Numbered from the stretch's first letter, positions 46,904 through 50,083 are shown. The stretch: 64,000 bases of DNA from Myxococcales bacterium (GCA_016707895.1 JADJGV010000034.1:565625-629624); one strand, 5' to 3'. The notes: generated from the letters alone by a model not told the origin. Numbers and translations: made by a program.

Positions 46904-47812
46904 TCACGGCATCCGCGCCGGCCCGGGGCCGGGGCGGGGGGGGGGCGCGGGCGCGGTCAGCGTGGCCTGGCTCCAGGCGCCGCCGCGCTGCAGCCACACC
47001 GCGCCGCTGGCCAGCGGCAGGAACACCGTGCCGTCGGCGTGGACGGCCAGCGCCAGCGGGCGATCGTCGTCGGCGACCGCCGGCGCGGCGACCTCCTGCC
47101 ACGCGCCCCGGACCCGGCGCGCCAGGATCGGCCCGGCGGCGCGCCGCGCGAACACCCACGCGGCGCCGTCGGGCGCGGTGGTGGCGGCCAGCGGGGTCAG
47201 GCGCTCGCCGCCCAGCACCACCGGCGCGGCGGCCTTGGCCGCGACGTCGAACAGCGCGCCGTCGGCGGCGATCGCCAGCGGCGCGGCCCCGCTGGCGAAC
47301 CGGGTGACGCTGGCGGTGGCGTGATCGACGAGGCGCTTGCCGGCCAGGCGCCAGAGGCGATCGGCGCCGGCGACGTAGACCTTGCTGTCGCTGCCGGCCC
47401 ACAGCGCGACGATCCCGGCCGGCGCCGCGCCGACGCGGACCCACGCCTTGGCCTTCCATACGAACACGTTGCGGCCGATCGCGAACGCCGGGTGCGGGCC
47501 ACCGCCCATCACGGTCTTGCCGCGCTCGCCGAGCCGCAGCGCCTGCCATCCGTCGGGATCGAGGCGGTAGGCCGGCGTGGCCTTGCCGACCACCACCAGC
47601 TGCGCCGCGACCACCGCGCCGCCGACGTCGGCGGCGACGCCGCCACCCGCGTCGCGGGTCCAGGCGCCGTGGCCGTCAGGCTGCCACACCTGCCCCGAGG
47701 GGCCGACCAGCGTCGAGGCCAGCGGATCGGGCGCCAGCGCGACCGCGGCCAGCGGCTCGGCGGTCGCCGCGCCAGCGCTCGCCAGCACCAGGGCGGCGAG
47801 GAGGCGCTTCAC
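46904..47812 (-). CDS. secreted hypothetical protein
   Basis: Signal peptide MKRLLAALVLASAGAATA. Start ATG 47812 overlaps the upstream gene's stop. Confidence 0.5.
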   Translation of the reverse strand: MKRLLAALVLASAGAATAEPLAAVALAPDPLASTLVGPSGQVWQPDGHGAWTRDAGGGVAADVGGAVVAAQLVVVGKATPAYRLDPDGWQALRLGERGKTVMGGGPHPAFAIGRNVFVWKAKAWVRVGAAPAGIVALWAGSDSKVYVAGADRLWRLAGKRLVDHATASVTRFASGAAPLAIAADGALFDVAAKAAAPVVLGGERLTPLAATTAPDGAAWVFARRAAGPILARRVRGAWQEVAAPAVADDDRPLALAVHADGTVFLPLASGAVWLQRGGAWSQATLTAPAPPPRPGPGPARMP

Positions 47813-48507
47813 GGCGTCGCGGGCGCGGGCGCGACGGGCGCCGGAGTGGGCGCGGCGGGGGCCGGCGCGGCGGGCTTCGGCGCGGGCGGGGCGGGAGTGG
47901 GTGCGGCGGGCTTTGGCGCGGGCGCGGCGGGTGCGGTCGGCGCGGTGGCCTTGCCGCCGCCCGTGCCCTTGCCGGTGCCGTCGCCCTTGCCGGTGCCATC
48001 GCCCTTGCCGCCGCCGGTGCCATCGCCCTTGCCGGTGCCGTCGCCCTTGCCGCCGCCGGGGGCGGTGGCCGCGCTGGCGTCGACGGTGGGCGGGGTCGCG
48101 GCCGCGCCGCCGTCACCGGCCACGCCGCCGTCGTCGGCCAGCGCCGCGGCGTCGACCGGCACCGCCGCGTCGACCGGGGGCGGTGGCGGCGTCTGCATGG
48201 CCTTCAGCTCCTGCTCGATCGCCTCGATCTCCTCGAGCTGCTTGCCCTTGAGCAGGCCGCAGGTCTTGAGCTGATCGAGCGAGCGCGCCTCCATGGCGCA
48301 CTTGACCGACGCCTTCTTGGCGGCGCCGCGGCACGAGCGGATCCACGCCGCGTCGGTGGCCGACTCGACGCTCATCTTCGACGTGCCCATCAGCGTGCGG
48401 ATGTTGGTGATCGCCTGCTTGCAGTCGGACTCCGACGGCTTGTCGCAACCGGCGACCATCGACACGCCCAGGACCAGCGACAGGCACCACGAGACAGGGA
48501 GCTTCAT
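47809..48507 (-). CDS. lipoprotein with KGDGTG and PAPAPK repeats
   Basis: GAGGA RBS, a VAGC lipobox, a Cys-containing N-terminal domain, then GKGDGT x5 and an Ala/Pro-rich tail. Start ATG 48507 overlaps the upstream gene's stop. Confidence 0.65.
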   Translation of the reverse strand: MKLPVSWCLSLVLGVSMVAGCDKPSESDCKQAITNIRTLMGTSKMSVESATDAAWIRSCRGAAKKASVKCAMEARSLDQLKTCGLLKGKQLEEIEAIEQELKAMQTPPPPPVDAAVPVDAAALADDGGVAGDGGAAATPPTVDASAATAPGGGKGDGTGKGDGTGGGKGDGTGKGDGTGKGTGGGKATAPTAPAAPAPKPAAPTPAPPAPKPAAPAPAAPTPAPVAPAPATP

Positions 48508-49310
48508 GACCATTCCTCGGAGGTGGACTCTACCAGCGCGATCGCGCGCGCGAGGTCTTGCCCGGTGTCGATCTCGCGCCACTGGCCGTGGATGGTCACC
48601 GGGTGGATCGGGGTGCCGCCGTCGATCAGCTCTTGCCACAGATCGGTGAGGTAGGCGTTGCGGTAGCGGGCGGCGCGCTGGAACGGCTCGTGGTCGCGGC
48701 CGCGGTAGCGGGCGGCGAGGTCGTCGAGGGCGGCGCCGACGATCGCCGCGCCGGCGGCGTCGAGCCGGGCCAGGCCGATGAACTCGCCGTGGGCCTCGGC
48801 CGGGGGCAGCGCGCGCTTGCCGACCCGGCGCACCCGGCCCGCGAGGTCGAGATCCGACACCTCGCCCTCGTCGAGCGGGTGCTCGGTCCGGCCCTCGTAG
48901 ATGTCGCGGAAGTCGGCGTCGATCACCAGGTCGATCGGCCCGCGGCCGGCCATCAGCGCGCGCACCACGCTGGGCGTGAAGATGATGTCGCTGTAGGTGA
49001 TCAGCGTCGGCCCGTCGAGCGCGGCGCGCGCGCACGCCAGCGACAGGAGGATGTTGTTGGTCTCCCACTCGGGGTTGTCGACGAAGGTGAGCCGCACGCC
49101 CGGGGGCGCCTCGGCCCGGGCGCCGGCCTCGAGGACGTCGCCGCGGTAGCCGCGGATCAGCACCAGCTCGTCGACGCCGGCGGCGGCGAACGCGCGCATC
49201 TGCCAGCCGAGCATCGTCCGGGCGCCGACCGGCACGAGCGTCTTGGGCACCTCGGCGGTGTGGGCGCCGAGCCGCTTGCCGCGACCGGCGGCGATGATGA
49301 TGGCCTTCAC
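48504..49310 (-). CDS. sugar/alcohol-phosphate nucleotidyltransferase (NTP_transferase family)
   Basis: N-terminal IIAAGRGKRLG motif. GTG start 49310 overlaps the upstream stop (GTGA). Confidence 0.8.
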   Translation of the reverse strand: MKAIIIAAGRGKRLGAHTAEVPKTLVPVGARTMLGWQMRAFAAAGVDELVLIRGYRGDVLEAGARAEAPPGVRLTFVDNPEWETNNILLSLACARAALDGPTLITYSDIIFTPSVVRALMAGRGPIDLVIDADFRDIYEGRTEHPLDEGEVSDLDLAGRVRRVGKRALPPAEAHGEFIGLARLDAAGAAIVGAALDDLAARYRGRDHEPFQRAARYRNAYLTDLWQELIDGGTPIHPVTIHGQWREIDTGQDLARAIALVESTSEEWS

Positions 49311-50083
49311 GACGCGGCCTCCGGCGACGGCGCGCGCGGCGCGAAGCGACCCAGGCGGAACGCGATCTTCAGCATCGACAGCCCCAGGTAGAGCAGGTTC
49401 ACCGCGCCGTAGGCCCAGAAGTACACGTCGATGCGGTCGGCCAGGGCGCAGATCCAGATGTACTGCGGGTAGTGCACGACGACGCGGGCGGCCCACTCGA
49501 GGGCCGAGATCGCGCGCCCGACCAGGCCCTTGCGACCGCCGACCTCGGCCGGCTGGCCGTCCTCGGTGGGCGGCTTGGCGCCGTACTCGGGGCGGCGCAT
49601 GAACGAGGTCAGCGCGATGCCCGAGGCCAGGCAGAACAGCCCGCCGAGCCCGACGATCAGCAGCCGATCGTCCTCGGTCTGGCGCCACAGCCGGACGGTG
49701 ACGCAGCCGTACAGCAGCATCGCCTTGAGCTCGTCCATCAAGAAGTCGAGCAGGTGGCCCAGCGGCGAGGCCATCTTGCGCACCCGCGCGATCATGCCGT
49801 CGACGCAGTCGAGCACGAACGACAGCTCGAAGATCGCCGCGCCCAGCACCAGCCCCCACCACGACAGCCAGCTGACCCACAGCGCGCCGGCGGCGGCGCA
49901 CACGATCACCGCGAACATCGTGACCTGGTTGGGGGTGATGCGGGTGTCGCGCAGCGCGTAGACGAACGGCGCGGCGCCCCGGCGGGCGATGTGCTCGGTG
50001 AACCAGTTGATGTCCTGCTTCTTCTTCGACGAGCGATAGATGGCGACGATGTCGGACCACATGGAGACGGCGGCCCGGGTCAT
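49307..50083 (-). CDS. CDP-alcohol phosphatidyltransferase family protein
   Basis: Signature D-x2-DG-x2-AR...G...D-x3-D (LDCVDGMIARV...GHLLDFLMDE) and multiple TM segments. Confidence 0.8.
   Translation of the reverse strand: MTRAAVSMWSDIVAIYRSSKKKQDINWFTEHIARRGAAPFVYALRDTRITPNQVTMFAVIVCAAAGALWVSWLSWWGLVLGAAIFELSFVLDCVDGMIARVRKMASPLGHLLDFLMDELKAMLLYGCVTVRLWRQTEDDRLLIVGLGGLFCLASGIALTSFMRRPEYGAKPPTEDGQPAEVGGRKGLVGRAISALEWAARVVVHYPQYIWICALADRIDVYFWAYGAVNLLYLGLSMLKIAFRLGRFAPRAPSPEAAS

Follow-up and report, generated by a model that had tools for sequence, protein, structure and literature searches.

What does a bacterium make with a cytidylyltransferase and a cytidine diphosphate (CDP)-alcohol phosphotransferase, and why should it encode this pair of enzymes in one overlapping unit with two exported proteins? 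The question is raised by a locus of four minus-strand genes, here called A to D, at positions 46904-50083 of a 64,000-nucleotide stretch of DNA (about 73% G+C; hereafter the window) from a Myxococcales bacterium (GCA_016707895.1 JADJGV010000034.1:565625-629624). We find that A and B, the two enzymes, are a portable two-gene core, which in the Haliangiales is joined to a lipoprotein (C) and a secreted protein (D). We propose that B makes a CDP-activated compound, CDP-X, that A transfers phospho-X to a membrane lipid, and that C and D are periplasmic partners of this pathway. To the proposal as a whole we give slightly less than even odds (roughly 0.46); the two-step chemistry taken by itself, with B making CDP-X and A transferring phospho-X, is quite likely correct. 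The literature that we searched held no description of this cassette family.

A conserved unit of two enzymes and two exported proteins

The initial annotation had read the locus as four minus-strand genes linked by stop/start overlaps of 4 nucleotides (nt), and the junctions agree: the GTG start of B overlaps the TGA of A as GTGA, the ATG of C overlaps the TGA of B as ATGA, and C and D overlap as GTGA. Public gene calls for an identical locus, which are independent of our open reading frame (ORF) listing, give the same four genes at the same lengths. The true start of A may be the Met at 50059 (MWSDI), and C has a second possible ATG at 48513. The families then assigned to the four products, a CDP-alcohol phosphatidyltransferase, a nucleotidyltransferase of the NTP-transferase fold, a repeat-bearing lipoprotein and a secreted protein, likewise stand, on the evidence given for each gene below.

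A protein 100% identical to B occurs in several metagenome-assembled genomes (MAGs) labelled 'Myxococcales bacterium', such as GCA_964269055.1, and close homologues are labelled Kofleriaceae or Haliangiales. The names of these MAGs, which are wastewater, lake, soil and glacier-stream bins, suggest that the hosts are mesophilic. For synteny we used the best 80 of at least 209 GTDB species relatives, retrieved with family-specific patterns. In these 80 loci A is 60-96% identical, and the labels are nearly all Kofleriaceae, Haliangiales, Myxococcales or Deltaproteobacteria; 3 of the 80 bear other labels, with binning as the probable cause. A lies directly upstream of B, often overlapping it, in the 80 Haliangiales loci. 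Of the species-level Kofleriaceae/Haliangiales loci, 54 extend 4.5 kb or more beyond A; B is present in all 54, C in 49, D in 50 and a further downstream gene, E, in 52, and the order A<B<C<D is kept in 45, which is more than chance would give. The initial annotation had missed the conserved fifth gene.

Gaps and overlaps were counted in 69 species loci: B and C overlap in 57 of them (median gap -7 nt), the median gap is 5 nt between A and B and 26 nt between C and D, and it widens to 136 nt between D and E, which were never seen to overlap. The enzymes evolve slowly (median identity 68% for A and 66% for B), whereas C and D are fast-evolving (39% and 36%); E stands at 71%. In 15 of the 80 loci (L023 and also L019, L021, L024, L025, L031, L033, L034, L040, L047, L050, L052, L054, L055 and L056) the D-E interval contains, in the same orientation, a gene of family PF03706 (LPG_synthase_TM, MprF-flippase-like), which is missing from the window.

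Gene A encodes a CDP-alcohol phosphotransferase

In a Pfam scan the product of A matches PF01066 at 43.2 bits (cut-off 22, E 6.9e-11), and its catalytic motif, D92-x2-D95-G96-x2-A99-R100-x8-G109-x3-D113-x3-D117, is complete and is invariant in 15 homologues and across the outgroups described below. Family membership predicts six transmembrane (TM) helices; a hydropathy scan (19-residue window, threshold 1.2) itself returned three, at 54-72, 141-159 and ~220-244, and did not score the amphipathic motif helices as TM. The family is further marked by an invariant N-terminal juxtamembrane stretch, IYR-SKK-x-DINWFT, and by a distinctive hydrophilic loop, FMRRPEYGAKPPTEDGQPAEVGGR.

A reaches no curated NCBIfam equivalog cut-off. 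Its best models are AIPS (NF040950, 51.5 bits against a cut-off of 180) and PIPS (NF045883, 42.7 against 170), and it scores 37.4 bits against IPCT-DIPPS (NF041135, cut-off 580). The housekeeping models give 21.5 bits for pgsA (TIGR00560, cut-off 109.1), 23 for pssA (TIGR00473, cut-off 107) and 17.5 for ClsA (NF053678, cut-off 240). When the A family profile is compared with the PDB, AF2299 ranks first (6e-12), with DIPPS (1e-5), CEPT1 (3e-5) and then CHPT1 also above the PI and PIP synthases; CEPT1 and CHPT1 make up the third to fifth best matches. These nearest solved relatives, which rank ahead of the users of CDP-diacylglycerol, take a soluble CDP-alcohol as donor, and A probably does so too. 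As to the acceptor, the invariant R164 and R184 align, in a weak alignment of 18 bits, with the KARAE and ERPER motifs of a PIPS chain, whose arginines (R153 and R191 of RsPIPS) bind the acceptor phosphate of inositol-1-P (PMC4634129).

Gene B belongs with the phospho-alcohol cytidylyltransferases

B matches NTP_transf_3 and NTP_transferase in Pfam, and its AAGRGKRLG motif (loop G9-R10-G11-K12-R13-L14) and the catalytic residues K23 and D108 are invariant. Compared with the PDB, the family profile finds LicC best (7.7e-14), and NPEWETNNILLSL of B aligns with NDKYADYNNFYSL of LicC over a common stretch, N-x2-[WY]-x3-NN-x2-3-SL. Set against single enzymes, B gives 26.3 for PntC, 25.5 for LicC, 24.8 for the T. 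maritima IPCT and 24.4 for the A. fulgidus IPCT-DIPPS on the phospho-alcohol side, and 24.1 for RmlA, 23.7 for GlmU and 23.6 for MurU on the sugar-1-phosphate side; in structure it is marginally closer to the former. Foldseek is less discriminating and ranks UGPases near PntC and LicC. The N-terminal half of B matches Arch_glmU, MurU and RmlA models, a cover confined to the NTP-binding first ~110 residues. Against the curated IPCT-DIPPS model B scores 44 bits (cut-off 580).

An exhaustive search over 1.84 billion representatives returned full-length relatives of B at 33-52% identity, mostly stand-alone proteins of about 255 amino acids (aa). Fused relatives, taken from the 150 best at 50% clustering, carry APS-kinase-like, PEP-mutase, Fe-ADH, methyltransferase, GT2, sulfatase, PPDK_N or helix-turn-helix (HTH) domains. 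The first four of these, on relatives at 33-43% identity, speak for a phospho-alcohol or phosphonate context rather than a sugar-1-phosphate one. A CDP-OH_P_transf domain occurs in 0 of 20 fused representatives scanned, which gives no direct link of the IPCT-DIPPS type and implies several substrates among these relatives. Across the outgroup copies, the candidate pocket residues Y106, Y138, R141, H144, E150, K165, E176, Y220, D223 and W244 are invariant and shared with the window protein, so that all of these cassettes probably use one substrate and hints from different contexts can be pooled.

Judged by these matches, B is a member of the phospho-alcohol/phosphonate cytidylyltransferase clade. 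The substrates of that clade include phosphocholine, inositol-1-phosphate, aminoethylphosphonate, phosphoglutamine and phosphoglycerate, the last being that of CpgD (PMC12275187), and membership alone does not name the substrate of B.

Genes C and D encode orphan exported proteins

C begins with the signal peptide and lipobox MKLPVSWCLSLVLGVSMVAG/C, with predicted cleavage between VAG and C, and continues in a conserved domain of about 85 aa with four further cysteines, C-[DN]KP-x3-DC...C.G...V.CA...C; lipobox and four-Cys motif are kept in 61 of the 69 species ORFs. The (GKGDGT)n and Pro/Ala repeats that the initial annotation had pointed out are both tandem repeats at the DNA level: Tandem Repeats Finder gives the GKGDGT array a period of 18/42 (95% matches for the 42-nt unit) and the Pro/Ala array a period of 36 with 3.3 copies and 80% matches. 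This low-complexity tail varies between homologues. C has no credible Pfam match (TrAA12, 15.2 bits against a cut-off of 30.9) and no NCBIfam or PDB sequence match.

D has a signal peptide ending in ATA, before EP, and matches no Pfam or NCBIfam family. Its AF2 model (pLDDT 89.1) is all-beta with about 28 strands and forms a seven-bladed beta-propeller, its four-stranded blades predicted to lie in a ring. Foldseek aligns the model with the seven-bladed propellers 7bie and 2qc5 (TM-score 0.63-0.64), and its matches are generic only (Doa1 WD40, a designed seven-blade propeller, Ycf48 and Vgb lyase, at 10-14% identity). Homologues of D in 64 loci share 29-94% identity with it. After the propeller, D and its homologues end almost invariably in PGPGPAR[MT]P (window 46904-46930), which matches no known motif and could be a docking or sorting tail.

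The A-B core in other lineages

Is the link to exported proteins a property of the enzyme pair itself? The contigs of the nearest B representatives outside Haliangiales (L085 and L087-L093; Table 1) show that it is not. A also lies directly upstream of B in L085, L088, L089, L090 and L091. L093 keeps only a truncated piece of A, where its contig ends, and the contig of L092 begins just before B. The A proteins of L085, L088 and L089 carry the family-specific A motifs. C and D are coupled to the enzymes within Haliangiales and in one further Myxococcota lineage, and the orthologous cassettes of L088, L089 and L091, which the initial annotation had missed, do without them, making C and D lineage-specific accessories.

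Two further settings bear on the substrate. In three outgroups the B-like gene is overlapped or directly followed by a major facilitator superfamily (MFS) gene. The three MFS proteins are orthologues of one another (34-36% identity) and belong to the organophosphate:phosphate antiporter family, with PgtP, UhpC and GlpT as best models and SLC37A4 and GlpT as best structures; they reach no curated transporter model and are probably a distinct subfamily. In L087 and L090, distant cassettes sit within glycan clusters. The first of these clusters (L087:1-16783) contains WbpA/B/D/E/I-like, NeuB, CMP-transferase-domain, LarA-like and TagF-like glycerophosphotransferase genes, a setting which suggests a role in glycan synthesis for part of the cassette family.

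Table 1. Positions and arrangement of the genes and sites discussed; coordinates without a locus name refer to the window
Feature	Position	Strand	Description
Gene A	49307-50083	-	258 aa, six-TM (by family membership) CDP-alcohol phosphotransferase
Gene B	48504-49310	-	268 aa, LicC/PntC/IPCT-type (COG1213-like) cytidylyltransferase
Gene C	47809-48507	-	232 aa lipoprotein: signal peptide, four-Cys domain, low-complexity G/K/D/T and P/A tail
Gene D	46904-47812	-	302 aa secreted protein, seven-bladed beta-propeller (model)
Gene E	46099-46836	-	245 aa, REC and DUF4388/PATAN response regulator
GKGDGT-encoding tandem DNA repeat in C	47965-48059	-	Tandem Repeats Finder
Pro/Ala/Lys-tail-encoding tandem DNA repeat in C	47819-47936	-	Tandem Repeats Finder
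Terminator-like hairpin	50093-50107	-	GC hairpin and T-rich tail, consensus match only
Promoter-like site	46855-46884	-	TTGACC-18-TATCCT in the D-E gap
PF03706 gene	L023:11400-12572	+	equivalents in 14 more loci
Upstream SIR2_2-TPR neighbourhood	L054:2814-7772	-	
Upstream SIR2_2-TPR neighbourhood	L085:2288-7159	-	
Upstream SIR2_2-TPR neighbourhood	L041:207-1814	+	
MFS antiporter	L088:8869-10119		directly after or overlapping B-like gene
MFS antiporter	L090:8750-10006		directly after or overlapping B-like gene
MFS antiporter	L092:887-2185		directly after or overlapping B-like gene
Cassette in L085 (Myxococcota MAG)			B 46%; A-B-C'(90 aa, domain only)-D'-sigma54 activator
Cassette in L091 (Polyangia)			B 52%; A-B-rhomboid
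Cassette in L089			B 49%; A-B alone
Cassette in L088			B 49%; A-B-MFS
Cassette in L092			B 43%; B-MFS, overlapping
Cassette in L090			B 42%; A'-B'-MFS within dTDP-aminosugar/GT2/PMT_2 cluster
Cassette in L087			B 41%; B'-2-epimerase-A'' (one gene apart) within WbpABDEI-like/NeuB/TagF-like cluster

Proposed function and alternatives

We propose that B would condense cytidine triphosphate (CTP), which we infer to be its nucleotide, with a small phosphorylated compound, releasing pyrophosphate and yielding soluble CDP-X. The organophosphate antiporters that follow B in three outgroups argue for an anionic or polyol phosphate as substrate and not for phosphocholine or phosphoethanolamine; the phosphorylated compound is probably of the former kind, such as glycerol phosphate, phosphoglycerate or an inositol or hexose phosphate, and is unlikely to be phosphocholine. 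A, with its active site predicted at the cytoplasmic face of the membrane, would displace cytidine monophosphate (CMP) and attach phospho-X to the hydroxyl of an acceptor, for which we prefer a membrane lipid. The product would be an unusual lipid with a phosphodiester head group, made in the inner leaflet and later carried outward to serve in the envelope, with the translationally coupled lipoprotein C and the propeller D as putative lineage-specific periplasmic partners in its handling, trafficking or use.

Several lines of evidence favor a lipid as the acceptor. The PF03706 flippase-like gene found in 15 of the 80 loci tilts the balance towards a membrane-lipid product, and genes of the same family adjoin both Bacteroidetes inositol-lipid clusters (PMC9246714). 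The conserved B-C overlap and the export of C and D give further support, as do precedents in which the same pair of domains builds envelope lipids, namely CpgD/CpgA, the proposed Bacteroides vulgatus cluster and BEPIS, all discussed below. No context of the cassette holds a gene for precursor supply, which fits a central metabolite as X, as with CpgD; specifically, MIPS is missing from the window ORFs scanned, from the public annotation within +/-10 kb and from the conserved neighbour families of the 80 loci, and the window contains no sphingolipid gene or ceramide kinase.

Other observations weigh against this proposal, and several of them point to the reading that competes with it most directly, in which A and B make a soluble phosphodiester of the di-myo-inositol phosphate (DIP), diglycerol phosphate (DGP) or glycerophosphoinositol type. 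A would then transfer from CDP-X to a second soluble phospho-alcohol, the product would later be dephosphorylated to serve as a compatible solute or signal, and C, D and E would share the locus without a part in the chemistry. Six-TM CDP-alcohol phosphotransferases use soluble acceptors and lipid-acceptor enzymes have extra helices (PMC4634129), and A should have six TM helices; of the solved proteins nearest to A, neither AF2299, which binds CDP-glycerol, nor DIPPS handles lipids (PMC4634129). The placing of R164 and R184, in the weak alignment noted above, on the PIPS arginines that hold the acceptor phosphate likewise hints at a soluble phosphorylated acceptor, and the best NCBIfam models of A (AIPS, PIPS and DIPPS) all take inositol-1-phosphate as acceptor. 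The context adds an organophosphate importer after B in three outgroups and cassettes that stand alone in L089 and L091. The flippase-like gene, for its part, is found in only ~19% of loci and not in the window, several orthologous cassettes lack C and D, and no gene in any context names X: MIPS, choline or ethanolamine kinase, PepM and Spt genes are missing from the window and the annotated flanks. We nevertheless consider a soluble product rather unlikely. It leaves the translational coupling of B to C, the exported partners and the flippase-like gene in 15 loci unexplained, it has no linked phosphatase or MIPS gene, and DIP-type solutes, known mainly from hyperthermophiles, sit poorly with MAG names that suggest mesophiles. 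Moreover, the Rhodothermus enzyme BEPIS is, as far as the paper citing it relates (PMC9246714), a DIPPS-like enzyme that takes a lipid acceptor.

Could the acceptor be a glycan instead? The cassette would then prime a glycan such as lipopolysaccharide (LPS), capsule or a teichoic-like polymer, or attach a phospho-alcohol substituent to it, either directly at the cytoplasmic face or through a periplasmic transferase that draws on a lipid head group. The glycan clusters of L090 and L087 lend this some substance: their distant cassettes (B 40-41% identical, A 22-28%) keep the pocket residues of B, and among the fused relatives of B one carries a sulfatase/LtaS-superfamily domain and another a GT2 domain. 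Yet the A proteins of these clusters are distant paralogues only, the window and all 80 Haliangiales loci lack a linked glycosyltransferase or polysaccharide gene, and we know of no CDP-alcohol phosphotransferase that acts on a glycan acceptor, so that we regard a glycan role for the cassette as quite improbable. Least credible of all is a chance meeting of a housekeeping PgsA, Pss or Pcs with a sugar-1-phosphate nucleotidyltransferase, the outcome that would have made the initial annotation wrong. Both superfamilies are large, and the N-terminal matches of B to Arch_glmU, MurU and RmlA and the UGPases near PntC and LicC in Foldseek might encourage the idea. However, A falls far below the pgsA (21.5 against 109.1 bits), pssA and ClsA cut-offs and is no ordinary PgsA, B does not group firmly with the sugar-1-phosphate enzymes, lying marginally nearer PntC, LicC and IPCT and matching the former only in its NTP-binding part, and the adjacency with A first is held from 97% down to ~40% B identity in very different surroundings. 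Scores and kept adjacency together essentially exclude a coincidental pairing.

The lipid head-group proposal retains our preference. Of the suggestions of the initial annotation, the reading of the pair as a cytidylyltransferase with a CDP-alcohol phosphotransferase is supported, and the two genes are adjacent in the 80 Haliangiales loci and in the outgroups L085 and L088-L091. That its coupling to exported proteins signals an envelope role is supported in part: it agrees with the conservation of this coupling in Haliangiales and one further Myxococcota lineage and less well with the cassettes of L088, L089 and L091. The analogy drawn with IPCT/DIPPS is one of mechanism only; A and B reach no curated model of the inositol pathway, and MIPS is absent from the window and from the annotated flanks of related loci. 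A bolder version of the proposal, which we hold to be improbable, would make the locus a Myxococcota-specific envelope-lipid module. Through a Kennedy-like cassette, diacylglycerol, an ether lipid or ceramide would gain a new anionic phosphodiester head group such as phosphoglycerate or glycerophosphate, and a dedicated pair of lipid handlers, C and D, tied to the enzymes by translational coupling, would receive or traffic the lipid in the periplasm. If true, this would mean a new lipid and a new kind of lipid-handling machinery, comparable in function with the anionic sphingolipids on which Caulobacter can survive in the absence of LPS. A role in anti-phage defense was rejected, a PADLOC scan having returned no match for A-D and one weak spurious match for E.

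Relation to known systems

The chemistry is of a known type, a two-step scheme like those of IPCT/DIPPS, LicC with CPT, and CpgD with CpgA. In Archaeoglobus and Thermotoga, IPCT/DIPPS combines a CTP:inositol-1-phosphate cytidylyltransferase with a CDP-inositol:inositol-1-phosphate transferase, of which AF2299 is a paralogue. Here, by contrast, the genes are separate with the transferase first, exported partners are attached, no MIPS is linked, the scores against the curated fusion model are low (A 37 and B 44 bits against 580), and the hosts are seemingly mesophilic Myxococcota.

Another parallel is the ceramide diphosphoglycerate (CPG2) pathway of Caulobacter, to which we liken the cassette by description. 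There CpgD (CCNA_01210, CC_1152), which resembles LicC and IPCT, turns a central metabolite into CDP-glycerate, and the proposed role of CpgA (CCNA_01217, CC_1159), a protein with a CDP-alcohol phosphotransferase domain, is to place the head group on a lipid of the envelope (PMC12275187, PMC11324152). As there, no dedicated gene for precursor supply is needed. The Caulobacter genes, unlike A and B, are not adjacent, and no ceramide kinase or sphingolipid gene lies near A-B. Asn110 of CpgD, which contacts glycerate, would correspond to Tyr106 of B by position from the catalytic Asp, not by alignment. A similar comparison by description can be made with the proposed inositol-lipid cluster of Bacteroides vulgatus and Prevotella, which joins MIPS, an NTP transferase, a CDP-alcohol phosphatidyltransferase and a HAD protein (PMC9246714), and with the Rhodothermus IPCT-BEPIS: the enzyme pair is the same, a Kennedy-like lipid route is proposed and a PF03706 gene is nearby, as in 15 Haliangiales loci, whereas MIPS and HAD are lacking here and the Bacteroides cluster is itself unproven.

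LicC with the Treponema CPT, and the Kennedy pathway (CCT/ECT with CEPT1), offer a third likeness. LicC is the best profile match of B in the PDB, and A has the SPLG-x-L-x-D stretch of the catalytic motif in common with CEPT1/CHPT1. Unlike the CEPT/CPT enzymes, A does not have extra C-terminal helices, and unlike those systems the cassette has no linked choline kinase or choline transporter, the transporters of its relatives being organophosphate:phosphate antiporters for anionic substrates. As for PntC and the phosphoglutamine cytidylyltransferase Cj1416, no A-B context contains PepM/Ppd/AEPT or Cj1415/1417/1418-type genes, and to our knowledge their pathways use no CDP-alcohol phosphotransferase.

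What is new is an uncharacterised, Myxococcota-specific cassette family with a fixed link in Haliangiales to two orphan exported proteins, and with accessory genes. Bacterial head-group diversity extends far beyond the textbook view of phosphatidylethanolamine, phosphatidylglycerol and cardiolipin, as the inositol lipids of Bacteroides and CPG2 of Caulobacter illustrate, and in these recent cases the key was each time a LicC/IPCT-like cytidylyltransferase with a CDP-alcohol phosphotransferase. The accessories of the present cassette (organophosphate importer, MprF-like flippase, lipoprotein and propeller) are testable hints. A lipid product would be a new envelope component of abundant, uncultured predators of soil and wastewater and would give two orphan families of exported proteins their first function; a soluble phosphodiester would extend DIP/DGP-type chemistry from hyperthermophiles to apparent mesophiles. 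Either would be an incremental extension of known chemistry rather than a new principle. A search of the literature on the polar lipids of Haliangium and Kofleria returned nothing useful.

Gene E and the flanks of the operon

E starts 67 nt beyond D in the window and encodes a response regulator (PF00072, 99.5 bits, 1.6e-28; PF14332, 77 bits, 1.7e-21) in which REC precedes PATAN, the reverse of the order in cyanobacterial PatA and PixG. In a consensus scan, the D-E gap contains the sole sigma-70-like site of the region (1 found against 0.1 expected), which is weak evidence; E appears to have a promoter of its own and is probably transcribed separately from A-D. We treat it as a conserved downstream neighbour; membership in the unit is not shown. 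PATAN-type regulators are described in a preprint (bioRxiv 10.1101/2021.06.11.447907) as acting on the type IV pilus motor in cyanobacteria. Convergent with E is a hypothetical gene (45117-46076, +; 434-440 aa in public calls), whose product has no Pfam match and which is kept in the closest genomes only.

On the other side, the terminator-like hairpin stands between A and the gene of an upstream Cys-rich lipoprotein (50177-51418, -; Dickkopf_N-like repeats; 413 aa in public gene calls) and likely marks the 5' boundary of the unit. This lipoprotein gene and a BrkB gene were rejected as parts of the operon, being kept in near-identical genomes only. Upstream of A, L085 and most other Haliangiales have instead a divergent gene for a SIR2_2 and TPR protein of about 1650 aa, often accompanied by a TonB_2/HEAT protein and a HAMP-adenylate cyclase, a neighbourhood that has been replaced in the lineage of the window. 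The SIR2_2-TPR protein and the adenylate cyclase were also rejected as operon parts.

Farther away, the product of a gene at 58552-60678 (+) is 708 aa long and has motifs of the sulfatase/phosphodiesterase and MopE-like metal-binding types. No conserved linkage of this gene with the operon was seen; one distant representative (P0371) joins a domain of the same superfamily to a B-like domain. A block of nitrogen phosphotransferase-system (PTS) and sigma-54 genes (rpoN, hpf, ptsN encoding EIIA-Ntr, hprK, rapZ, HPr and ptsI) occupies 37055-44626 (+), and the CTP synthase gene pyrG (34232-35854, +) lies 13 kb from the presumed CTP consumer B, probably by coincidence.

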